This document shows positions 3,355 through 18,574 of a DNA stretch of 20,000 nucleotides, in pieces. The position numbers were made by a program, and so were the translations under genes. The stretch comes from an uncultured virus (IMG/VR IMGVR_UViG_3300042564_007246). Lineage: Duplodnaviria > Heunggongvirae > Uroviricota > Caudoviricetes. Where the stretch lies: IMG/VR virus record IMGVR_UViG_3300042564_007246. One strand, given 5' to 3'. The notes under the pieces are model-generated. The model did not search any database. It was given only the letters and a program-made list of their open reading frames with translations, and was not told the DNA's origin. Each line of letters opens with the position of its first letter. Positions within the stretch are counted from its first letter, which is position 1.

Positions 3355-3930
3355 ATGCTTCTAGATGTAGAAATAAATAAATTATATAATTACGATTTTT
3401 ATGGATGTATAGACAAAAAAGAAAAACTTCTTAATTCCTTAAAATCTTTAGATCTTGAACTTGAATCTTTTGGTGTTTTCAATTTGATTGACCAAAAGAT
3501 TTCTTCTTTTAATATTCAAAACAATAATATCCAAAATATTAATAAGTTTAATATTGATGGTGTTCTTATAGAATCTAACAATTGGTTACATTCTCAACTT
3601 GATTCATTATTACACTCAAAATATTCCAGACAAAGTAGATATTTATTTAATAATGGTAGTGTGACACCAGAACTTCCAGCTCATTACAAATTTGATCAAT
3701 TAATTGCTGCTAAATTAGGCTATAAGAGCGATAATTCTTTATTCGTACCCATTTGGTCTAACACTATAAGAATATCTAAAAATACTGCAGAATTGATTTA
3801 TTTTCCAACACCTGAACAAACAAAAACTCTTTTGTCTTTGAACATAAATAATTATATAGTCAAAAATATACATGTTCGGGATGTCTTTGACGAATTAGTT
3901 GATAAATTGCCAGCTTTCCATTCATCTTGA
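3355..3930 (+). CDS. Hypothetical protein
   Basis: 191-aa ORF co-oriented with its neighbours; no motif recognised. Confidence 0.7.
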   Translation: MLLDVEINKLYNYDFYGCIDKKEKLLNSLKSLDLELESFGVFNLIDQKISSFNIQNNNIQNINKFNIDGVLIESNNWLHSQLDSLLHSKYSRQSRYLFNNGSVTPELPAHYKFDQLIAAKLGYKSDNSLFVPIWSNTIRISKNTAELIYFPTPEQTKTLLSLNINNYIVKNIHVRDVFDELVDKLPAFHSS

Positions 3931-3949
3931 TTTTTTGTATAATGTTTGC

Positions 3950-4735
3950 ATGGATATTAATTTTGGAGATGTTTTTGAACAAGAAAAGAAGTGGAAAAGC
4001 GCTCAACCTTATCATCATGTCGTAATAGACAATTTTCTTCCTATAGACATTGCTAATAAAGTTGCCCAGGAATTCCCTGATGTAAATAGTGATTTTTGGT
4101 ACGAGTATGCTAATCCATTAGAGATCAAGAAGGCATGCTCTGATTGGAATAAGTTTCCACCATCAATCTATCAAGTTTTCACTGCTTTGATGAATAGACA
4201 AGTGGTTGATGTTTTGTCTTTTTTCACTGGAAAAAACTTGATGGCAGATTCTGGTTTACATGGTGGTGGACTTCATTGCCACAAGGATGGAGGAAAGCTA
4301 AATACACATTTAGATTATTCTATTCATCCAAAAATCAACATGCAGCGCAAAGTAAACATTATTGTCTATGTAACTAAAGATTGGGATCCAGCATGGGATG
4401 GAGCATTAGGGCTGTGGGATAACGACAATTCTGATGGTGTTGACAAACCTGGCAATCTTGTTCAAAAAATAGAGTGCAAGTTTAACAGAGCTATAATCTT
4501 TGACACAACAATGCATTCTTGGCATGGTTTACCAGACCCAGTACTTTGCCCTGAGGGTAAATCCAGAAATTCTTTAGCAACATATTACTTGTGCGATCCA
4601 CCACAAGATGTTGATCCAAGAGGTAAAGCTCTTTATGCTCCTAGTGAGGATCAGAAAGGTGATTCTCATATTGAAGAGTTGATTCGTAAGCGAGCTAATC
4701 TACAAACATTCTCAGAGGTTTATAAAACAAAATAA
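3950..4735 (+). CDS. 2OG-Fe(II) oxygenase (prolyl-4-hydroxylase-like, 2OG-FeII_Oxy_3 type)
   Basis: HLD (HxD), SWHG and RNSLATYY (RxS) motifs; GGGLH and FNRAIIF. Start placed at ATG 3950, 6 nt after TATAAT. Confidence 0.9.
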   Translation: MDINFGDVFEQEKKWKSAQPYHHVVIDNFLPIDIANKVAQEFPDVNSDFWYEYANPLEIKKACSDWNKFPPSIYQVFTALMNRQVVDVLSFFTGKNLMADSGLHGGGLHCHKDGGKLNTHLDYSIHPKINMQRKVNIIVYVTKDWDPAWDGALGLWDNDNSDGVDKPGNLVQKIECKFNRAIIFDTTMHSWHGLPDPVLCPEGKSRNSLATYYLCDPPQDVDPRGKALYAPSEDQKGDSHIEELIRKRANLQTFSEVYKTK

Positions 4736-5448
4736 TGGCAACTTTAGATATTATTATGACTGGTTTCACAGGAAGTGATGAAATCAGAGAAATGACAGAA
4801 AGATCTATTAGATCATTGCGTGAATCTGAAGGTTCAGAAGATTTCAATATCATTTTCTTAGAATCAAATCAAGAATCAACTCACAAGTATAATGTTGATC
4901 ATCAGATTCATCCAGATTTTCCATATCATTGTAATAAGTATTACAACATTGGAATTCAATATGCAACTTCTGATTTTACAGGTATTGTAAACAATGACAC
5001 TTATTTTTACAAAAACTGGTGGACAAAAATGCATGCTGCAATGGAAAAGCATTCTCTAGATTCAGCATCTCCAAGAAGTCCAGTTGAGCAGTTTGGTCTT
5101 ATTGCACAATGCGAAATGAAACATAGATTTACACCTCCAACTAGAGTGGTAGAAGGTTTTCTTGCTGCATATACTTTTTGCGGTTGGTGTTGGGTAATCC
5201 GAAAAGAAGTAAGAGAATGGCTTTTCCCAGTTGATGAGCAATTTTCATTCTACTATAATGACAATGATGTTGCGATGCATCTTAAGGATCATGGATGCAA
5301 GCATGCACTAGTTGCTGGTTCATTGGTTGAGCATTATGGACAAAGATCACACAAGGCATTGCATGATCGTGGCGAATACTACAAGCATACTTTTGGGTTA
5401 GAAAAGAACTTTGTTGATAAGTGGAAACACATTTTCGACAAGCTATAA
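4735..5448 (+). CDS. Glycosyltransferase family 2 (GT-A)
   Basis: YNIGI...IVNND (DxD equivalent), GWCWVIR, DEQF..YYNDND, VEHYG; TAATG coupling to the oxygenase. Confidence 0.85.
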   Translation: MATLDIIMTGFTGSDEIREMTERSIRSLRESEGSEDFNIIFLESNQESTHKYNVDHQIHPDFPYHCNKYYNIGIQYATSDFTGIVNNDTYFYKNWWTKMHAAMEKHSLDSASPRSPVEQFGLIAQCEMKHRFTPPTRVVEGFLAAYTFCGWCWVIRKEVREWLFPVDEQFSFYYNDNDVAMHLKDHGCKHALVAGSLVEHYGQRSHKALHDRGEYYKHTFGLEKNFVDKWKHIFDKL

Positions 5449-5474
5449 AAAAACCCCCTTTTCAGGGGGTTTTT
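5447..5474. terminator. Bidirectional intrinsic terminator
   Basis: AAAAACCCCCT-TTTC-AGGGGGTTTTT between convergent genes. Confidence 0.9.
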
Positions 5475-5476
5475 CT

Positions 5477-6382
5477 TTACCAGGTTGGTTTACTCAAATC
5501 AGATAAGAAGTATTCAGCTACACCCTTTGTAGTGTTGTATTTCATAAAGTGAGCAACAATCTCACTTTGGTAATATTCATATTCTCTGTCCAAATATTTA
5601 GGTTCATTTCGGAAGAAGAATTCAATCTTTGTCATCAAAGCTTTAGGCGCTCTTGTCATAACAAATCTTGGGCTGTTAGCAATGTTCAAGAAAATTGGAA
5701 CACATCCATTTCCAATAATTTCCCAATGACGAAGACAATCCCAACCTGCCTTTGACATTGTAAATGCATATTTGGAAACTTGATAATCTTGGTAATAAGG
5801 TGCTTCGTCCTTGAAAACATATGTTTTTCGATCTCTAGGATCAACATGTGCCATTCTCTTTTCCTTCTTTGTGTCAGTGACAACATTGAAAGTTGGAAAA
5901 CCAAAACCAATTTGATTTACTTTGCCGAAGAACTGCTGATATTCGCCGTTATTTTCCCAGATACATTCACGCTTAAAATAACGAGCGCCTTCTCTGATCA
6001 GGGGATGGAACTTAGTGTTGTCTTCACCATCTACAAAAACAACCTTTTCCTTATCATAATGCTCTAAAACTGTTTCTAAATAATCCTGACATCGCCATAC
6101 ACTTCCGTATACAACATAGTCGAAGTATTTGTTTTTGATTTTCTTTACAATATCTTCACGATCTGTATCATCAGGATCTAAAGTTCGAGTTACAGTAAAT
6201 CCTTTACCATATTGATTTCGAGCTTCTTCATAAGGAAAATCCTTGTAAATATGGATTCTTGGGTTTACATCAACTACATCTGCGCCAAAAAGTTCTTTCA
6301 ATCCGATAAACAAACAGTCATCCTGGTAATCAACCATGTCAATTGGCTTACCAGCCTTTTTTGATATATAGAGAATTTTCAT
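5477..6382 (-). CDS. GT-B-fold glycosyltransferase-like protein
   Basis: C-terminal YYQDYQVSKYAF...GWDCLRHWEIIGNGCVPIF (exostosin/GT-B-like signature); VDGED; TATAAT promoter and GAGGT RBS. Confidence 0.7.
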   Translation of the reverse strand: MKILYISKKAGKPIDMVDYQDDCLFIGLKELFGADVVDVNPRIHIYKDFPYEEARNQYGKGFTVTRTLDPDDTDREDIVKKIKNKYFDYVVYGSVWRCQDYLETVLEHYDKEKVVFVDGEDNTKFHPLIREGARYFKRECIWENNGEYQQFFGKVNQIGFGFPTFNVVTDTKKEKRMAHVDPRDRKTYVFKDEAPYYQDYQVSKYAFTMSKAGWDCLRHWEIIGNGCVPIFLNIANSPRFVMTRAPKALMTKIEFFFRNEPKYLDREYEYYQSEIVAHFMKYNTTKGVAEYFLSDLSKPTW

Positions 6383-6427
6383 AAATTACCTCACACCTAT
6401 TATACATTTTTTTTGTACAATTAGAGT

Positions 6428-7117
6428 ATGAAAAATGTCGATTTAGATGTTGTTATCACCACAAATTCAAAAAATAGTGATCTTTGGACCATGACTCACA
6501 ATGCTATAAAGTCTTTGAGAAATTGTATTGGTGGAGAAAATTTCAACATAATAGTTGTTGAAACAAACACTAATGCTGAAGAATTTCCAGAAGCTGATGT
6601 TACAGTCAAACCAAATGAACCATTCCAAATAAATAAATTTTACAATTTAGGAGCTGATCATTGTCAAGGCGATTATTTACTAGTAACAAACAATGATGTT
6701 TTGTATGATGAGAATTGGTGGGTTCATATGAAAAAATCATTCATTGACAATAGTCTTGATACCGCATGTCCACAAGTGACAAATGAACAACCAGACATTT
6801 ACAATAAATGGTTCAAACAAAAAAATACATTTAAAAATCTTGAAGGATACGAATGGTTCTTTGGGCAGGCATGGCTAATTACCAAAGATGTCAAAGATTG
6901 GTTATTTCCATTAGATGAAAATATTCATTTTTATTTTAATGATGACGATATGGTAATGAGATTAAAAGAAAAAAATTGCAAACATCAGCTTGTTTACAAA
7001 TCAAAAATGCAACATTTCCAAGCTAAATCACACCACATTCTTAAAGAAGAGGGAAGATACCAGCAAGTTACCTGGGGAACAAAACAATATTTTGATTCAA
7101 AATGGAACAAGTCCTAA
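6428..7117 (+). CDS. Glycosyltransferase family 2, paralogue of 4735-5448
   Basis: YNLGA...VTNNDV, GQAWLI, DENIHFYFNDDD; collinear similarity with the 4735-5448 product. Confidence 0.85.
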   Translation: MKNVDLDVVITTNSKNSDLWTMTHNAIKSLRNCIGGENFNIIVVETNTNAEEFPEADVTVKPNEPFQINKFYNLGADHCQGDYLLVTNNDVLYDENWWVHMKKSFIDNSLDTACPQVTNEQPDIYNKWFKQKNTFKNLEGYEWFFGQAWLITKDVKDWLFPLDENIHFYFNDDDMVMRLKEKNCKHQLVYKSKMQHFQAKSHHILKEEGRYQQVTWGTKQYFDSKWNKS

Positions 7118-10295: not shown

Positions 10296-10847
10296 ATGAA
10301 TGGAAACTCAATTTTTTTTGAAGGTCGATATACGCCTTATTACAATATAATTATCAATATTGCACAATCAGTAGGATGTGAAAATTTTTTAGAGCTAGGT
10401 TTAGCTAATGGTGTAAATCACATGTTTATGCGTAATTTTATACCAAATTGTGTAGGTGTTGATATGTCTAAAGGATTTGAAGGTGATATTCCTAGATTTT
10501 ATCAAATGACAACTGATGAGTTCTTTAAGCAAAATACAGAAAAATTCGACATTATTTTTATCGATGCTTGTCATAAATTTGATCAAGTAAAAATAGATTT
10601 TGAAAACTCTTTGAAATGTCTAGAAGACCGTGGAATTATTATCTTTCATGACACAGATCCATTCGATGCGCATATGCTAGATGATTCTTTTTCGTCAGAC
10701 TCATATAAAATCGCTAATTATGTAAGAAAAGAGCATCCAGAATTAGATTTTATCACTCTACCTGTAAGTAGTATGGGATTAAGCATGTGCAACAGAAGAG
10801 ATGACGCAAGGCATTTAAAGTTTACTAAACTTACATTTAATATTTAG
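10296..10847 (+). CDS. Class I SAM-dependent methyltransferase (Methyltransf_24-like)
   Basis: FLELG, TTDEFF, FDIIFIDACH, GIIIFHDT. Confidence 0.88.
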   Translation: MNGNSIFFEGRYTPYYNIIINIAQSVGCENFLELGLANGVNHMFMRNFIPNCVGVDMSKGFEGDIPRFYQMTTDEFFKQNTEKFDIIFIDACHKFDQVKIDFENSLKCLEDRGIIIFHDTDPFDAHMLDDSFSSDSYKIANYVRKEHPELDFITLPVSSMGLSMCNRRDDARHLKFTKLTFNI

Positions 10848-11689: not shown

Positions 11690-11929
11690 CTAGTGGAATT
11701 CTTGGAAATAAGGACATTTTTGATAGCCAGAACCATCTCTGACCCATCCATTTCCTTTACATTTATTTTTGCCTTTTCCTAAGCATTCACAAACTCCAAT
11801 TGGATTTCCATTTCTTATGATAATATTATCGATTTTTGCTTGTTCTTCTTGAGTAAGATTAAGAAATTCTTCTACTGATCCTACTTTGAATCCAGCATTT
11901 TCCAATCGATTTTTCTTATCTTCATCCAT
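11690..11929 (-). CDS. HigA/XRE-antitoxin-like N-terminus fused to a Cys-rich tail
   Basis: MDEDKKNRLENAGFKVGSVEEFLNLTQEE followed by CEC...C.G.GW...CP. Start at ATG 11929 overlaps the upstream stop. Confidence 0.6.
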   Translation of the reverse strand: MDEDKKNRLENAGFKVGSVEEFLNLTQEEQAKIDNIIIRNGNPIGVCECLGKGKNKCKGNGWVRDGSGYQKCPYFQEFH

Positions 11930-12152
11930 TATTGAATCTTTCAAACCGCTTTTCAATTTGAAATTTTTCATCGAGAGGTAATACAAGCAAATCAGAAACT
12001 TGCCAATCATTAAGTGTTTGCTTATTGATGACAGTTTTAAATTCTAAATTACCATCAACCAATCGCCAATATTTCACAACATTCCCATTTGTATGTGAAA
12101 CTTCAGAACCTTGTTTCAACTCATAAAACAAATCAAAATTTATATTAAACAT
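11922..12152 (-). CDS. Hypothetical protein, possible divergent Tad2-like member; paralogue of 14096-14311
   Basis: ELKQG.V...YWRLVDGNLE...W....LLVLP. Confidence 0.65.
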   Translation of the reverse strand: MFNINFDLFYELKQGSEVSHTNGNVVKYWRLVDGNLEFKTVINKQTLNDWQVSDLLVLPLDEKFQIEKRFERFNNG

Positions 12153-12159
12153 AATTATC

Positions 12160-12564
12160 CTAATCTTCCTCTTCGTTATCAGAATCTTCTAGTGCTGCAG
12201 CTAAATCTGCAGGCACTACATCCCACATAAAACCTTTGTCTTCGAGAGTGTCTGTGTTCCAAGGTTCTAATTCTTCAAGCCAAACACGATAATCTTCATA
12301 AGTATCATCATATTCGTCTTGCAAAGTTTCAAAATCTAGTGAATATTCTTTACCATAAAACTTCATTGCTTTGTCAAAAATACTGCAATCGCAATCAATT
12401 TCAAGATAAGCATAACCTTCTTCATTCAAAGGTGTTCTACCAGTTCCAAGATATGAAAAATCACTAATGATTTCAATAAGATTTAAGTCATTGATAAGTT
12501 CAAGATCAACTTTCCAGTAATCATGACGATAGCAATCAATTGTTTGAATTGTAATTTTTTCCAT
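12160..12564 (-). CDS. Acidic conserved hypothetical protein
   Basis: H..WKV...ISDFSY...YAYLEIDCD motif; GAGGA RBS; D/E-rich C-terminal half. Confidence 0.75.
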   Translation of the reverse strand: MEKITIQTIDCYRHDYWKVDLELINDLNLIEIISDFSYLGTGRTPLNEEGYAYLEIDCDCSIFDKAMKFYGKEYSLDFETLQDEYDDTYEDYRVWLEELEPWNTDTLEDKGFMWDVVPADLAAALEDSDNEEED

Positions 12565-12646
12565 AATTATTTCCTCTTATTTTTCTGAAACTTCTGAATC
12601 TTAGTCAGCAGTAATATCAATGTCAAAAGATAAATTTAATTTGTAT

Positions 12647-12877
12647 TTAGCCATTGATTACCTCCCAATCATCATCTTTCATAATATCATGAAAGATTTC
12701 TTGAAGTTTGTATTGAGCCTCTTGTGGTGAATCAACATTTCTTAAATACATCCAACAAAGAGCTGGTGAATAATGAACCCAAGTGCCTACGTATTCAATA
12801 TAAGCACCAGGAGACCATTTAAGCATACGGATTTTCTTGCCTTGTTTCAGCAATTGTAATGCTTCTAATCCACTCAT
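12647..12877 (-). CDS. Tad2/DUF2829-like protein (array copy 6)
   Basis: MSGLEALQLLKQGKKIRMLKW...DIMKDDWEV. Confidence 0.75.
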   Translation of the reverse strand: MSGLEALQLLKQGKKIRMLKWSPGAYIEYVGTWVHYSPALCWMYLRNVDSPQEAQYKLQEIFHDIMKDDDWEVING

Positions 12878-13173
12878 TATCCATCTACCTTTTTGTTATC
12901 GTCAACAGTATCTTCTGTATCCCAATAATCAATGTCCCAATCATCAGCAATAACATCACCAGGTACTAAATCAAGACCCACTGATGCCAATTCATATTTA
13001 CTTCCAATTTCATCTGGTTCATCTAGATGATATACAGACACAAAAAAATTGTCATGATATACATACACAAAACAATTGTCATCTTTGTCGTAATACATAT
13101 ATTTTTGTTCCCAGGCAGCTCTTGTGATTGGTTTGCCTTCCATTAAAGCATCTAATACTTCAGATAATTTCAT
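12877..13173 (-). CDS. Tad2/DUF2829-like protein (array copy 5) with acidic tail
   Basis: MKLSEVLDALMEGKPITRAAW...DVIADDWDI; ATGA overlap with the upstream stop. Confidence 0.75.
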   Translation of the reverse strand: MKLSEVLDALMEGKPITRAAWEQKYMYYDKDDNCFVYVYHDNFFVSVYHLDEPDEIGSKYELASVGLDLVPGDVIADDWDIDYWDTEDTVDDNKKVDG

Positions 13174-13379
13174 TCTAATATCTCCCAATCATCACTCAAA
13201 AATTCAGTAGCATCAACAACTCTATTAGTCCAAATAAGTCTTCCGCCAAAGCCCCATCTAATTTCATTGTGTCGATCTATAGCTCCGAGCATCTGAAACA
13301 AATACTCACCTTTTTTCCAATGAAGCCTTCGTACTTGATAACCTTTACGAATTGCTTTAAGTGCTTTTATTCCAGTCAT
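13170..13379 (-). CDS. Tad2/DUF2829-like protein (array copy 4)
   Basis: MTGIKALKAIRKGYQVRRLHW..GEYL...EFLSDDWEILE. Confidence 0.78.
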   Translation of the reverse strand: MTGIKALKAIRKGYQVRRLHWKKGEYLFQMLGAIDRHNEIRWGFGGRLIWTNRVVDATEFLSDDWEILE

Positions 13380-13612
13380 TCTACTATCTCCCAATCATCC
13401 ATTAGAAAGTCATCTAATATCTCGTCTGTCAGGAGTACTGTATCTTCTAGATGATGTAAATCTTCTCCACGATATTGATTGTATTTTGGTGAAGGGGCAA
13501 TTTTACATCCATCACGAGTCACATAAGTCGCTAAATACTCGCCATCACGCCAGTGCTTACGCTTGACTTTTTTGTTTTCTCTTAGTGCTATTAGTGCTTC
13601 GAATCCAGTCAT
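13376..13612 (-). CDS. Tad2/DUF2829-like protein (array copy 3)
   Basis: MTGFEALIALRENKKVKRKHW..GEYL...DFLMDDWEIVE. Confidence 0.78.
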   Translation of the reverse strand: MTGFEALIALRENKKVKRKHWRDGEYLATYVTRDGCKIAPSPKYNQYRGEDLHHLEDTVLLTDEILDDFLMDDWEIVE

Positions 13613-13857
13613 TCCACTATCTCCCAATCATCCATTAGAAACTCACCAGCATCTATAGCATCAAAAATACTCATGTAATCAGCAAATTTAGGGTCATCAG
13701 GTACGTGCTCTGGAGCTGGTGAAATTGAATCACACTCAACACGAATTGACCAAAGATTATCAGAGAAATAAGCTTTACACTTTTCATCTGGTTCCCATGA
13801 TTCACGTCTAAGTGTAAATCCAGCTTGTAATTTGTCTAAAGCTTCTCTACCAGTCAT
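13609..13857 (-). CDS. Tad2/DUF2829-like protein (array copy 2)
   Basis: MTGREALDKLQAGFTLRRESW...EFLMDDWEIVE. Confidence 0.78.
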   Translation of the reverse strand: MTGREALDKLQAGFTLRRESWEPDEKCKAYFSDNLWSIRVECDSISPAPEHVPDDPKFADYMSIFDAIDAGEFLMDDWEIVE

Positions 13858-14099
13858 TCTAATATTTCCCAATCTTTCTTAAGTATATCATCAATTAATC
13901 CCTCTGCTATTTCTTGATTAAACATATTCGTCCAAGGGGTAATGGGATTTAAATCTGGTATTCTTGGAAACTCTTGTGCTTGATGAGAAAAATAACAACC
14001 ATCAGATGTGAAATAAAAGTGCCAATCAGGATTTCTCCAATTGACACATCTTATTTTCTTTCCTTTAGACAATTCTATTAAAGCTTCTATTCCGGTCAT
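13854..14099 (-). CDS. Tad2/DUF2829-like protein (array copy 1)
   Basis: MTGIEALIELSKGKKIRCVNW...DILKKDWEILE. Confidence 0.75.
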   Translation of the reverse strand: MTGIEALIELSKGKKIRCVNWRNPDWHFYFTSDGCYFSHQAQEFPRIPDLNPITPWTNMFNQEIAEGLIDDILKKDWEILE

Positions 14100-14311
14100 T
14101 CTTCATTTAACTTCTTAAAAGAATAATCTGCTTGCATAGGTAAAATTAAATATTTTATTGTCATCCAATTTGTTGTTCCTGATTTATGCTTTACTCTGTT
14201 TTGCAATTCATTGTTTTTGATTCGCCAAACAGTCAGATTTCTTTCATCTTTTACAATCAAAAAATATCCATCATTTAGTTTTTCAATAACATCAGAAGGA
14301 ATAGGCAGCAC
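14096..14311 (-). CDS. Hypothetical protein, possible divergent Tad2-like member; paralogue of 11922-12152
   Basis: DVIEKLNDG...VWRIKNNELQ...W....YLILP; GTG start overlapping the upstream TAG. Confidence 0.65.
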   Translation of the reverse strand: MLPIPSDVIEKLNDGYFLIVKDERNLTVWRIKNNELQNRVKHKSGTTNWMTIKYLILPMQADYSFKKLNEE

Positions 14312-14580
14312 TAGTCAACCTCATAGTTTTTCCTGAAAGTTTCTCTGACATTTTTATCCCAAAGCAACTCAGACGCAAAACCAATAGTACCGGAATCAAA
14401 ATGAACCCATACAGTTTTACCATCATCAGAGAGACTAATTTCAATGATATCGTCATTATTATATTGAAACTCTTCACAAAAAATAGATGCTATTTTAGAT
14501 AAATAAGCTTTAAATCTAGTAAAACTGTATATTCGACCCCTAACATATTCTTCGCCATAAATTTTTGGATCAGTTTGCAT
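14311..14580 (-). CDS. Hypothetical protein
   Basis: 89 aa; GAGGT RBS; overlaps neighbours at both ends. Confidence 0.7.
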   Translation of the reverse strand: MQTDPKIYGEEYVRGRIYSFTRFKAYLSKIASIFCEEFQYNNDDIIEISLSDDGKTVWVHFDSGTIGFASELLWDKNVRETFRKNYEVD

Positions 14581-14758
14581 AAGTGTACCTCACCAATAAA
14601 CTAACAATTAATGATAACATTGATATAATAATTAAGAGCTTAGTATTCATTTCAATAAAAGATTTGTCTTTTTCAAAAATAATTTTATATACCCCAGTCA
14701 TAAAGTAGCAAACTAAAATAAGACATATAAAAGATAATGCTAATAAAAGAATAGTCAT
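14570..14758 (-). CDS. Small two-TM membrane protein
   Basis: 62 aa with two hydrophobic helices; first gene after the promoter at 14777-14804. Confidence 0.7.
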   Translation of the reverse strand: MTILLLALSFICLILVCYFMTGVYKIIFEKDKSFIEMNTKLLIIISMLSLIVSLLVRYTYAN

Positions 14759-14761
14759 AAA

Positions 14762-14804
14762 AAAATCCCTATAAACAGTATACTGCGTATAAGGATTTTG
14801 TCAA
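14762..14804 (-). promoter_or_regulatory. Sigma70-type promoter TTGACA-N16-TATACT embedded in a 38-bp imperfect palindrome
   Basis: Plus-strand TGTCAA at 14799-14804 and AGTATA at 14777-14782; 19-bp arms at 14762-14780 and 14781-14799 with 3 mismatches. Confidence 0.75.
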
Positions 14805-14815
14805 GAAAATATATC

Positions 14816-15004
14816 TTACACAAGTTGCCAAGTGTCTACTTTTACATCTTCATCATTTAGATTTTTCACTACCCACTTTGTTTTGCTGTCAAATTTCTTC
14901 ATAATTTTGTTGTCTGTAAACTTTATATAAACAAAATCAGAGTCAATAGGTCTTTTTGCAATAGAGCCATTCTTCACAGATGCCCACACATCATAAAAAG
15001 TCAT
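14816..15004 (-). CDS. Divergent Tad2/DUF2829-like protein
   Basis: MTFYDVWASVKNGSIAKR...EDVKVDTWQLV; GAGGTG RBS. Confidence 0.62.
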   Translation of the reverse strand: MTFYDVWASVKNGSIAKRPIDSDFVYIKFTDNKIMKKFDSKTKWVVKNLNDEDVKVDTWQLV

Positions 15005-15045
15005 TTCTGTACACCTCTATTAGTATATTTTCAGAACAACACTTA

Positions 15046-15921
15046 CTAACCTTTCTTGTGCTCTTCTTGTATTTGGTCTACTTCTGCTATAACATCAACA
15101 GCTTCCCAATCATCTGCCAGCATATCTGTGTAATTGATAGTGAAAGATTTAGCAAATTTACCAACACCCAAATGAGGCAACCAACTTCTTCTTCTAATAG
15201 TCAATCCTTGATTTAAATCTTCTAAAACATCTTTGATTGTTCTGTTAGGTAAAATAACCCAATCTTCTGCAAAAAGATCCTCCACAGTGAAAATTGCTTT
15301 AGAATTGTCATATTTATCTGGTGGAAATAAATAAATATTAGGATTGCCTTTTCTTGTGACAATTTTACCATGATTGATCATTTTTAGAGCCCATGTGATA
15401 TCGGGCTTAAATTCTATATTATTTTCTTTAGCAAAATCATCAAAATTGCTTCCAATATATTTATTTCCAAAACTATCAAAAATTTCGGAATCAACAGCAT
15501 AGGGTAAATAATCTTCACCTGGATCTAAATAAGGAGAACCATTCTTATCCAATTTTGCTGCTTTCCAAGATTTATTTTTACTTTCATAGTGTGTGAAATC
15601 TTTGACTTCTTGACCCCACTGTTTAGTTTCATAATAATACTTATATATTTTACCATCAACATGAGCAAAACCATATTTAGCCCAATTAGTGCCATTAGAG
15701 CGAGGATCTTCTTCTGCTAATAAATCATGGTAGATATAACACCCATGAGTTTTCATCATGTTTATAGCTGCTGGTGTATTGTATTCTGCATTTTCGATAT
15801 TGAAATCATAAAATTTGCTTACATTTTTGACATTCATATTTATTCCAGTACGTTTTTCAAACTCACGAATTTTATTGTGATAATAATCTTTTTGACTTTT
15901 AGGCGATTTGTCCACGAGCAT
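15046..15921 (-). CDS. Multidomain protein ending in two tandem Tad2/DUF2829-like domains
   Basis: DITWALKMINHGKIVTRKG...EDLFAEDWVIL and TIKDVLEDLNQGLTIRRRSW...TDMLADDWEAV. The start may be GTG 15915 (GGAGG 6 nt upstream). Confidence 0.75.
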   Translation of the reverse strand: MLVDKSPKSQKDYYHNKIREFEKRTGINMNVKNVSKFYDFNIENAEYNTPAAINMMKTHGCYIYHDLLAEEDPRSNGTNWAKYGFAHVDGKIYKYYYETKQWGQEVKDFTHYESKNKSWKAAKLDKNGSPYLDPGEDYLPYAVDSEIFDSFGNKYIGSNFDDFAKENNIEFKPDITWALKMINHGKIVTRKGNPNIYLFPPDKYDNSKAIFTVEDLFAEDWVILPNRTIKDVLEDLNQGLTIRRRSWLPHLGVGKFAKSFTINYTDMLADDWEAVDVIAEVDQIQEEHKKG

Positions 15922-16144
15922 CCTCCAATGCAGAAATTAATTTATCAAGTTCTTCTTTATCTAAAACAACTGAATCTGAGTAAGCGAAACCATCAAAAAG
16001 AATTTTCAATCTTTTTTTCCAATTCAACTTACCATCATTAAAACCATAATTCCAAAGTGAAATATCTACAGTTTTTAATTCTACATCGGGGCGTACATGC
16101 AGAGAATGGCACAAACAATCACAGTTTATTATGGTAGTATTCAT
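15899..16144 (-). CDS. Hypothetical protein with CxCxxH motif
   Basis: NCDCLCH...WKKRLK; TGTGG-TATGAT 6 nt upstream of the ATG. Confidence 0.72.
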   Translation of the reverse strand: MNTTIINCDCLCHSLHVRPDVELKTVDISLWNYGFNDGKLNWKKRLKILFDGFAYSDSVVLDKEELDKLISALEDARGQIA

Positions 16145-16234
16145 ATCTTAATCATACCACAAAAAAATATTTTAAAAAACATTTACAACAATATTATCAC
16201 CACAAAAGTTTTATAACTTACAGGAGCAAAAAAA

Positions 16235-18574
16235 ATGTTTAATTTTTTTAAGAAAAAACTACCTAGCGATTTTGAGCAGGTACAAGAAAAGGGCAAGGAA
16301 TTAAGTGAAATTTTTTACAACCCAAACCAAGAACAACCAGATTTTAATTTAATTGATAAAGTAAAAAAAAGCAAATTCCAAGATTTTGAAGTAGCATCAT
16401 TTGCAAGTTTTTTTGAAAAGCTTGAATTGATACCTACTGTTGATCTTGGTGATGTAAATTTGAAGATTAGAACTACAAATCCTTCAGCACCAATTGATGC
16501 AGATTTATGTCAAGTTTGGATGAGAAGAACTTATACAAATCCAACAAATGGACAAACCACAGAACAATGGCTTAGTTGGGTTCCTAATGATGATGTAGCT
16601 AAAAAATATTTCAAGTTTAGTTTATTCTCTGGAGAAACGCAAACTTTCAATTTTGATGTAAGCACATTTGATGTTGGAAAATATGATAGTTTTAGATTTA
16701 TCTTCTTCACTTACCATTGGGACGTACTTGCAGATCAGACAGCTGAAAATGTTTCATTTGAAATTACTACAAAACAGAAAAGAGTAAAAACTCCATTTGT
16801 CGAAATTTTATCCAACAAGATTCAAGACCCAGGTGTTGATGGAAAATTGCATATTCCATATGTAATTAAGATGCCAGCTAAGACATTTACTACTTGGGGC
16901 GGGTGGTTCTTGTTAGCTAAAGGAGCTTCAATGTTTCAACAGCCTTGGATTCCATATGCTAAAAAGAATGGCGCAGATGTTCTTCCTGACGGTGCAACAA
17001 TGATAGCTGATGGTCCTGATCCATATTGGTATTCCGAAGGCGAAATTGTTTTTGATTATCCTTCTGTAAGTGGTATTCACAATTTACAATTTGGTTTGTT
17101 TGATTATAATTGGAAAATGCAAAACTGGGTTTATCCAGGCATTAATATTGAAGTCGGTGGAGATAATTGGGTTACTAAATGCCCAGATTCTAAATTGCCA
17201 CCAAGACTAAGAGTTATCAATGGACAATTGGTAAAGCTAAGTGGCACAGGCGGAACTGGTGGGACTATATCTAATTGTACACCTTATAATATTTATGAAG
17301 GCACAACTGGAGCCAATGCAATCACAGCTATAAGAGGTGGAAATTACGGCAATCAATATTTGTGGTCAGAAGCACCTGATTATAATCGTACTGGATATTT
17401 TAGTTCATTGAAGTTTCTTGGACATAAGTTCTTAAGACTTTTATTTAACCCAGATAAGTATATTGCTGACAAGATTTACAGAAATAGAATTCAAGACACC
17501 ATTGGTAAAATGCTTACTGCTGGATGTCATGTGATAGCTGGACCTCAACATATTCCATCAGGCAATGATTTGTATGAAAAATCTGAAGCTTTTTACAAGC
17601 TTGTTGAATTGATGGCTAACAATTGGAAGGGGTTACCAGTTTGGGTTAGCATTACAAATGAACCTAATGACATTGGTGACTGGAGTTTATGCAAGCCTAT
17701 CTTTGAAAAGGCAATAACAATTTATCGTTCCATTGATGCAGATGCATTTATTATTTGTCCAACTTCAAAGTGGTCAAAAGAAAATACAACACCAGAAGCA
17801 AATGATTTAATCGATCCTGTATTAGTTGATGCATATGCTTATCATGCATACAACAATGCTAATGAGGTTGTTCCAAATCTTAAACCATTATTAGATAAAG
17901 GCGTAGCTGTAATTGTTGAAGAGTATGGCTGTGGAGATGCTGAATGGCAAAAAAGTATTAACATTGAAATGCAAAAGCTTTCAAAATTATATCCAAACCT
18001 TATAGCGTTTGCTACTTGGGCTTGGACAAGAGCAGGGGAAGATGCCTGTCCAATGGTTGAGGATGGGAATCTTGCTAATGTCAAATTAACTGCAGTAGGT
18101 CAAATGCAAGCGAAGGATTTGAAAACTTGGGACAGTGGTAACTTTATTACTGAAGGTGGTGGAACTCAACCAAATCCACTTCCTAATCCACAACCCGTAC
18201 CTGTACATGTAGATGCTTACACAAAGGCTGAAATAGATACAAAATTTACTGAATCATTAGCTTTAATAAATGAAGATTTTAAATTACATGTTAAAACTTC
18301 TTTAGAAAGTTATGATGTTCTTCAAGATGCAGAAACAAAGCAATTTTTTGAATCTGCTGTAGTAAATTTAGAACTTGTAGATATTGCTGAAATTGATGCA
18401 AAATATACAGATGTGAGTGAAGTTTCAGTTTTGTCAGGTAAAGAAATTGCTAAGTTCAGAGCTGATTTATATAACAAAGCTCTTAGTGATTATAAGCTTA
18501 TGCTTAAAGCACCAACAGTAGCAAAATTGTCTGCTTATTTAGCCAAGTTTATTGAATATATAAAACCTGTCTAA
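16235..18574 (+). CDS. Glycoside hydrolase, GH5/clan GH-A catalytic domain with N-terminal beta-rich domains
   Basis: ITNEP (acid/base), YHAY, IVEEYG (nucleophile), TWAW; Pro-rich linker QPNPLPNPQPVP followed by AYTKAEID; AGGAG RBS. Confidence 0.8.
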   Translation: MFNFFKKKLPSDFEQVQEKGKELSEIFYNPNQEQPDFNLIDKVKKSKFQDFEVASFASFFEKLELIPTVDLGDVNLKIRTTNPSAPIDADLCQVWMRRTYTNPTNGQTTEQWLSWVPNDDVAKKYFKFSLFSGETQTFNFDVSTFDVGKYDSFRFIFFTYHWDVLADQTAENVSFEITTKQKRVKTPFVEILSNKIQDPGVDGKLHIPYVIKMPAKTFTTWGGWFLLAKGASMFQQPWIPYAKKNGADVLPDGATMIADGPDPYWYSEGEIVFDYPSVSGIHNLQFGLFDYNWKMQNWVYPGINIEVGGDNWVTKCPDSKLPPRLRVINGQLVKLSGTGGTGGTISNCTPYNIYEGTTGANAITAIRGGNYGNQYLWSEAPDYNRTGYFSSLKFLGHKFLRLLFNPDKYIADKIYRNRIQDTIGKMLTAGCHVIAGPQHIPSGNDLYEKSEAFYKLVELMANNWKGLPVWVSITNEPNDIGDWSLCKPIFEKAITIYRSIDADAFIICPTSKWSKENTTPEANDLIDPVLVDAYAYHAYNNANEVVPNLKPLLDKGVAVIVEEYGCGDAEWQKSINIEMQKLSKLYPNLIAFATWAWTRAGEDACPMVEDGNLANVKLTAVGQMQAKDLKTWDSGNFITEGGGTQPNPLPNPQPVPVHVDAYTKAEIDTKFTESLALINEDFKLHVKTSLESYDVLQDAETKQFFESAVVNLELVDIAEIDAKYTDVSEVSVLSGKEIAKFRADLYNKALSDYKLMLKAPTVAKLSAYLAKFIEYIKPV

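Follow-up and report, generated by a model that had tools for sequence, protein, structure and literature searches.

The window, the whole 20,000-nucleotide stretch of DNA analysed here, belongs to a 127,461-bp virus fragment (G000; 32% GC, 36% complete) of a large freshwater phage, one relative of which reaches 358 kb. From 14099 to 12647 its minus strand carries six tandem Tad2-like (PF11195) paralogues, designated T1 to T6 (Table 1). All six match the PF11195 profile (E 4.5e-6 to 3.9e-4), three of them above the curated cut-off of 25 bits, and the statement in the initial annotation that the sequences between the repeats are unrelated does not hold for the proteins. At the DNA level the cores of the six genes align little above shuffled sequences (z 0.1-4.9). 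The gene ends are alike because the genes are Tad2-like paralogues, a point missed in that annotation; it had placed the feature at 13170..13874, where the repeats do lie, but the array extends beyond these limits on both sides.

Table 1. Features of the Tad2-like array and its surroundings in the window
Feature	Coordinates	Strand	Evidence or remark
291-aa gene, C-terminal pair of fused Tad2-like domains; uncoupled control (DWE with GAA)	15046..15921	-	PF11195 E 5.5e-8
62-aa gene, perhaps a highly diverged Tad2-like copy	14816..15004	-	hhalign probability 16.6% only; no Pfam match
Two small genes, left array anchor in relatives	14096..14580	-	comparison of relatives
T1, Tad2-like, 81 aa	13854..14099	-	PF11195 E 4.4e-5, 24.4 bits
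Joint T1/T2, GGGAA variant, weak ribosome site	13854..13874	-	duplex -4.2 kcal/mol
T2, Tad2-like, 82 aa	13609..13857	-	PF11195 E 3.9e-4, under cut-off
Joint T2/T3, 38-bp repeat copy: FLMDDWEIVE and stop, GGGAG, ATGA, MTG	13604..13641	-	
T3, Tad2-like, 78 aa; common to unrelated small phages	13376..13612	-	PF11195 E 4.5e-6
Joint T3/T4, 38-bp repeat copy	13371..13408	-	sequence comparison
T4, Tad2-like, 69 aa	13170..13379	-	PF11195 E 1.4e-5
Joint T4/T5	13170..13193	-	pattern match; gene X inserted here in L039
T5, Tad2-like with acidic tail, 98 aa	12877..13173	-	PF11195 E 1.7e-5
T6, Tad2-like, 76 aa	12647..12877	-	PF11195 E 5.6e-5
Truncated post-array gene, right array anchor	12571..12654	-	70 aa in relatives

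The array is flanked by small minus-strand genes at 14096-14311 and 11922-12152, both of which match one and the same set of genes in relatives and seem to be distantly related paralogues. In the truncated gene behind T6 a stop comes after 17 codons. Some 700 bp found here in the related locus L008 are absent; they hold the remaining part of this gene, along with a membrane gene and one further gene. Within T5, a 27-bp tandem duplication (93%) lies at 13027-13080, a part in which indels occur among relatives and contigs of public sequencing runs. Elsewhere in the window, the regions 3899-7117 and 16235-18574 encode a 2OG-Fe(II) oxygenase, two GT2 glycosyltransferases and a 779-aa GH5 glycoside hydrolase, and a methyltransferase lies at 10296-10847. 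The runs richest in window sequence are lake or freshwater metagenomes, and RNA runs share only 0.06-0.12 of the window's words. Positions 12500-16200 gave no match among GenBank phages, and bacterial genomes gave a single weak one (L044, 54% over 26 aa), which was left out of the analysis.

The junctions between neighbouring genes, referred to as joints, resemble one another closely. As had been reported, the 38-mers at T2/T3 and T3/T4 are identical at 37 of 38 positions and lie 233 bp apart; their homology reaches 53/60 when extended. The pattern GATTGGGARATAKTRGAATGA, a degenerate core of 21 nt, matches four times (at 13170, 13376, 13609 and 13854), against a mean of 0.03 in 200 shuffled controls, none of which gave four matches; the T5/T6 joint is without the repeat. 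Each joint encodes the C-terminal DW-E-I/V-V/L-E of one protein, the motif GGGAG, a TGA/ATG overlap and the N-terminal MTG of the next protein. The overlap of stop and start (ATGA) was correctly described for four joints, and the mosaic sharing of FLMDDWEIVE, WEILE and DAxEFL among the copies can be read from the sequence as claimed; GGGAG at 8 nt before the next ATG applies to three joints, but T1/T2 has GGGAA. At the end of the array, the DWEV codons of T6 form a strong predicted ribosome site for the next gene. With a predicted ribosome site inside the upstream gene and a stop/start overlap, the array has the layout of a translationally coupled operon, and its genes are probably translated in this coupled manner. 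No extra copies of the joint or of the family were found elsewhere in G000, and relatives have single distant PF11195 genes.

Other roles of the joint were considered and rejected. Sigma-70-like promoter matches numbered 32 between 11500 and 16400, against 25.5 +/- 5.9 expected, and among the four repeat joints only one is touched by a match, at 9/12. A terminator or hairpin role found no favour in the folds, six of six being no better than shuffles.

The amino acids of the repeat can be identified as family termini, since solved Tad2 chains, to which alignment profiles of the array proteins match with E values of 1.3e-9 to 7e-6, start with EAL..L..G...R..W and end with DW.IVE. SPO1 gp34.65 (8SME), ModTad2 (9EIB) and HgmTad2/AcrIIA7 (8KBI) share the N-terminal EAL..L..G...R..W and the C-terminal D.L..DW.IVE with the window proteins, which differ from the solved proteins in their highly divergent cores and in their arrangement as a coupled row of six genes. 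Protein constraint would fix DW..I/V.E and MTG.EAL, translational coupling would fix GGGAG and the ATGA overlap, and through the two combined each joint would be nearly identical over 14-60 nt.

What the array proteins may bind is less readily read from their sequences. The gcADPR residues of HgmTad2 are, in the available text of PMC10680739, the W21/N22 pair together with W87 and S90/T92/D93; the WN and W..S.TD motifs formed by them are missing from the window proteins. By hand, the W of the first pair is present in all of T1 to T6 and the N in none. Counting from the last W, in an approximate, ungapped scoring by hand of T1 to T5 (T6, with an extra residue, was left out), D or E stands at the position of D93 in 5/5, T92 is present in one protein, and S90 and W87 are present in none. 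On these residues the window proteins would not be counted among the gcADPR sponges. Tad2 homologues sequester several immune signals, according to the portions available of 10.1101/2023.05.01.538930, PMC10680739 and 10.1101/2025.08.24.671296, and since homologues bind different signals (10.1101/2025.08.24.671296, available portion), the missing residues leave another ligand possible. The array proteins are at best Tad2-family-like cargo, with a putative role against host nucleotide-signal immunity. Fused multi-domain Tad2-like forms seem common among library matches (2249 matches, E <= 0.001), where P0001, P0145 and others show two to six matched stretches per protein.

Related loci were collected by way of a flank gene (9), the cassettes, and the joint pattern (6 viral, 19 metagenomic); the 19 metagenomic loci were fetched by the joint pattern itself, and the set is therefore biased towards the joint. 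Left out of the counts were records of L001 (L004, L007, L010 and L016), L008-type loci (L009, L021 and L022) and other duplicates (L012, L015, L014, L018 and L037, as well as L020 except in breakpoint mapping); L024 and L032 end before the array. The search with T2 returned, besides the L001 record L004, two unrelated 24-aa matches (L005 and L006), which were dropped.

The content of the array varies in relatives, with breakpoints mapping into the repeat, and the invariance expected had the initial annotation been mistaken was not found. Among 12 fully flanked loci there are 11 array compositions of 1 to 8 units, from T5 alone in L017 to eight units in L039. T5 is found in all 12; T6 was seen only in the window and L001, a locus 99.93% identical to the window with the same array. 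The DW core stands at 23 of 27 distinct adjacencies (21 loci). The order T1<T2<T3<T4<T5 is conserved, with T4 in L008 and the gene X described below as exceptions, and cassettes are therefore gained, lost, replaced and now and then relocated, but not freely shuffled.

Neighbouring cassettes, as judged from sequence identity, have different histories. T4 is 91-100% identical in nucleotides in relatives whose neighbouring genes are far more divergent: identity to the window is 76% for T3 and 97% for T4 in L039, 82% and 100% in L043, and in L008 T4 stands at 91% against 71-77% in most of the matched flanks, the high-identity stretch starting in the upstream joint and stopping in the downstream one. 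Contigs from public runs cover the joints as well. The window sequence is matched over its joints with 0 differences (for example X14 at 13359-13809 and X8 at 13166-13433), and is thus not an assembly artefact where so covered. In contigs of four public runs, at 85% likeness, 7 of the joints shown (15 of 23) lie at array joints; T1 is joined to T5 within the repeat (13182/13867) in contigs of X5 and X14, from two studies, with 101 letters on the shorter side. As these are contigs only, in which rare variants would not appear, matched at 85% likeness, such joints most likely come from related genotypes.

Comparison of 24 loci gave 28 pairwise rows. Once repeated cases had been merged manually, 8 distinct gains or losses inside the array remained, along with 3 events at its edges and 1 in the flank. 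Of the 8 internal events, seven have 13-60 nt of joint homology at both ends. The ends of the T3 loss map to the 38-mer repeat pair in L036 (53/60) and to the same pair, T2/T3 and T3/T4, in L041 (47/54); the absence of cassette U from L033 and L038 goes with 14/14, and the remaining homologies are 20/24 for T4 with X, 23/24 for X, 22/24 for T3 with Y, and 13/15 for c13. The internal event Y has just 5 nt of homology, the three edge events share 1-4 nt, ATG or ATGA only, and the flank event has 21/25; genes lacking the repeat come and go in the flanks as well. Homology alone is no proof of mechanism, because all cassettes end alike. In L033 and L038, T3 carries the spacer and tail of U after a 14-nt exact overlap, and in L041 the first codons of U are those of T3; these chimeric ends place the crossover inside the coding motif. 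Overall, the crossover position is not fixed and ranges from before the stop to beyond the next start codon. A cassette that collapsed in L008 has left a joint in another reading frame before c13.

One passenger of the array, gene X, is different in kind. It encodes 95 aa, and behind its stop codon lies a copy of the joint that is non-coding; searches of X gave no Tad2-like match, Pfam matches under the cut-off and Atlas scores of 0.78. It stands as T2-X-T3 in L029, T4-X-T5 in L037/L039 and T2-X-T5 in L045, and the order in L039 could have arisen by one out-of-register crossover between a genome with the T4/T5 joint and one with T2/X-T5. Just downstream of another cassette, V, the loci L031 and L039 have about 4-6 copies of an 11-bp unit, followed by a promoter-like TGATATAAT that restarts the operon; L033 is without these repeats and TGATATAAT, and V adjoins the next gene directly.

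T3 extends beyond the large phages. It is found from about ATG to TGA in unrelated small phages of 47-49% GC, with nucleotide identities of 89% (L002) and 84% (L003), which exceed those in several related large phages (76-78%), and in both small phages the copy sits within the phage's own Tad2-like row. Its GC3 in L002 is 0.29, against 0.38-0.56 in ten neighbours, which suggests an AT-rich donor for the L002 copy. The unrelated phages L002, L003, L013 and L040 (44-49% GC) have Tad2-like rows of their own with similar joints, some of the genes being fused, by eye, to helix-turn-helix-like N-termini, or in frame together. A small phage contig of 41% GC (L011) has two coupled Tad2-like genes beside four CRISPR-like repeats, which we take to be type I-E-like.

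Codon choice at the joints bears on whether their identity exceeds what the amino acids impose, as had been proposed. Of 59 coupled domains, those followed by a start, 51 encode the Glu by GAG, as do 2 of 24 uncoupled ones (51/60 and 2/23 when T4 of L008, which has GAA with ATG following, is moved to the coupled set), in counts that include orthologues and whose rows are not independent. That GAG tracks coupling points to a ribosome-site role. Among 13 cassette classes, the Glu after DW is GAG in 9/11 (genome frequency 0.16) and Ile is ATA in 7/10 (genome frequency 0.28); after the ATG, Thr is ACT and Gly is GGA in 7/8 each. At the C-terminus the pairwise rate of same-codon use over these classes, 151/254 (0.59) against 0.57 expected, shows no overall excess. 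Following the start, codons 2-8 agree in 140/228 against 0.45 expected and codons 9-22 in 110/283 against 0.46, although the pairs compared are not independent. The proposal is accordingly upheld for the GAG bias and the non-coding joint after X, but not for an overall synonymous excess at the C-terminus, and the extra identity of the joints probably owes much to their Shine-Dalgarno role.

The preferred reading, to which we give a probability of roughly 0.7, is that cassettes are exchanged by general recombination guided by the repeat, between joints that do not match in position. Homologous or microhomology recombination would pair such joints, whether in a single genome or between phages that infect the same cell; pairing would delete, insert or replace whole cassettes with the downstream ribosome sites kept, and unrelated genes between two joints could be carried along. 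We infer the recombination step and its enzyme from genome comparison, and G000 encodes RecA (E 1.7e-42). The variable arrays, the breakpoints and the chimeric ends give comparative support to the original proposal that recombination at the joints adds, deletes and swaps cassettes. The main alternative regards the joint as a by-product of protein constraint and of the ribosome site and overlap, with illegitimate recombination supplying the changes and selection keeping whole coupled genes. Such a process is clearly acting at the edges and flanks, where events share ATG(A) only or genes change without repeats, and it would also agree with the DW.IVE end of the solved Tad2 proteins, the dependence of GAG on coupling and the lack of a general C-terminal synonymous excess. 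As an account of the array itself it is nevertheless unlikely, in that the chimeric ends set crossovers within the shared coding motif, the non-coding joint of X is present in three contexts, and same-codon use exceeds expectation in codons 2-8 but not in codons 9-22. About two events, those with chimeric ends, alone separate repeat-guided recombination from selection at boundaries, and at this locus both short homology and illegitimate recombination with selection seem to be at work.

Two further explanations carry far less weight. Cassette-like behaviour and the relocation of X could suggest that a dedicated site-specific recombinase acts on the joint, much as the integron integrase acts on attC, and G000 is just 36% complete; but PF00589 and PF00239 are without a match in three of three records, including the 358-kb relative (89% completeness), all six folds are like shuffles with no hairpin (z -0.38 to 0.84), and the crossover point varies from before the stop to after the ATG, which makes a dedicated enzyme very improbable, although one supplied by the host could escape such a search. 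The annotation, too, had noted no dedicated recombinase in the window. It is hardly credible that repeat-induced misassembly of metagenomes accounts for most of the variant arrays. The data are indeed all metagenomic assemblies, a repeat of 38-60 nt is longer than small k-mers, and L036, as a single contig, could be misassembled at the 38-nt repeat; against this, variants with their own SNPs recur in separate contigs (L033/L038; L026/L027/L030; X in L029, L037/L039 and L045), overlaps in several variants are of 14-24 nt, and loci fetched by the flank gene differ too (L017, L019, L023 and L008).

Several known systems resemble the array exchanged in this way. Integron arrays likewise consist of tandem promoterless genes that are gained, lost and moved as units; here no integrase family matches, attC-like hairpins are absent, the crossover point is variable and the order is mostly conserved. 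With genes also gained and lost without repeats, the description as integron-like is apt only in a loose sense. The PeSLs of T4-type phages, as presented in the accessible part of PMC2839356, are intergenic elements of about 100 bp that contain a promoter and a stem-loop, and mini-circles were shown for them. As here, small accessory genes of a hypervariable region lie between short repeats, exchange at these repeats gains or loses genes and leaves a chimeric repeat (here by comparison only), and the elements were compared with integrons, with a dedicated recombinase not identified in that part of the paper. Unlike PeSLs so described, the joint measures 14-60 nt, lies in the coding ends of paralogues, and shows neither a hairpin nor a strong promoter match. 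In mosaic phages, according to the portion of PMC3029335 available, short conserved boundary sequences similarly allow homologous recombination at gene borders to produce single-gene mosaicism; the joint differs from these in comprising the family's own termini and a ribosome site and in recurring in tandem. The amplification of dmd-tifA in T4, in the text available of PMC9391042, is alike in concerning a counter-defence locus, short homologies (6-10 bp there) and general machinery, but involves identical copies and arbitrary microhomologies, whereas here the paralogues are divergent and the joint recurs and preserves the frame. The literature searched contained no paper on tandem Tad2-like arrays or on their joint-guided shuffling, and homologue supplements of preprints may list these proteins. 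What sets the array apart from these systems is a proposed recombination arm that consists of a paralogue family's coding ends together with a ribosome site.

The same few bases would thus encode a protein motif, provide a ribosome site and act as an arm for recombination, and a counter-defence-like gene set would be retuned gene by gene without a dedicated recombinase, along breakpoints that have been mapped. The locus is relevant to the long-standing debate over whether mosaic boundaries in phages derive from short homology or from illegitimate recombination followed by selection. About 13 divergent Tad2-like classes without the known gcADPR residues, together with X, are candidates for binding new immune-signal ligands. 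It is possible, though we hold the idea tentatively, that the family ends act as recombination arms common to unrelated phages of one host, a recombinase-free platform on which sponges of different signal specificity are swapped and counter-defence genes like X are captured, with coupled translation possibly giving mixed oligomers. If so, the pool of cassettes would be a catalogue of immune signals yet to be known.
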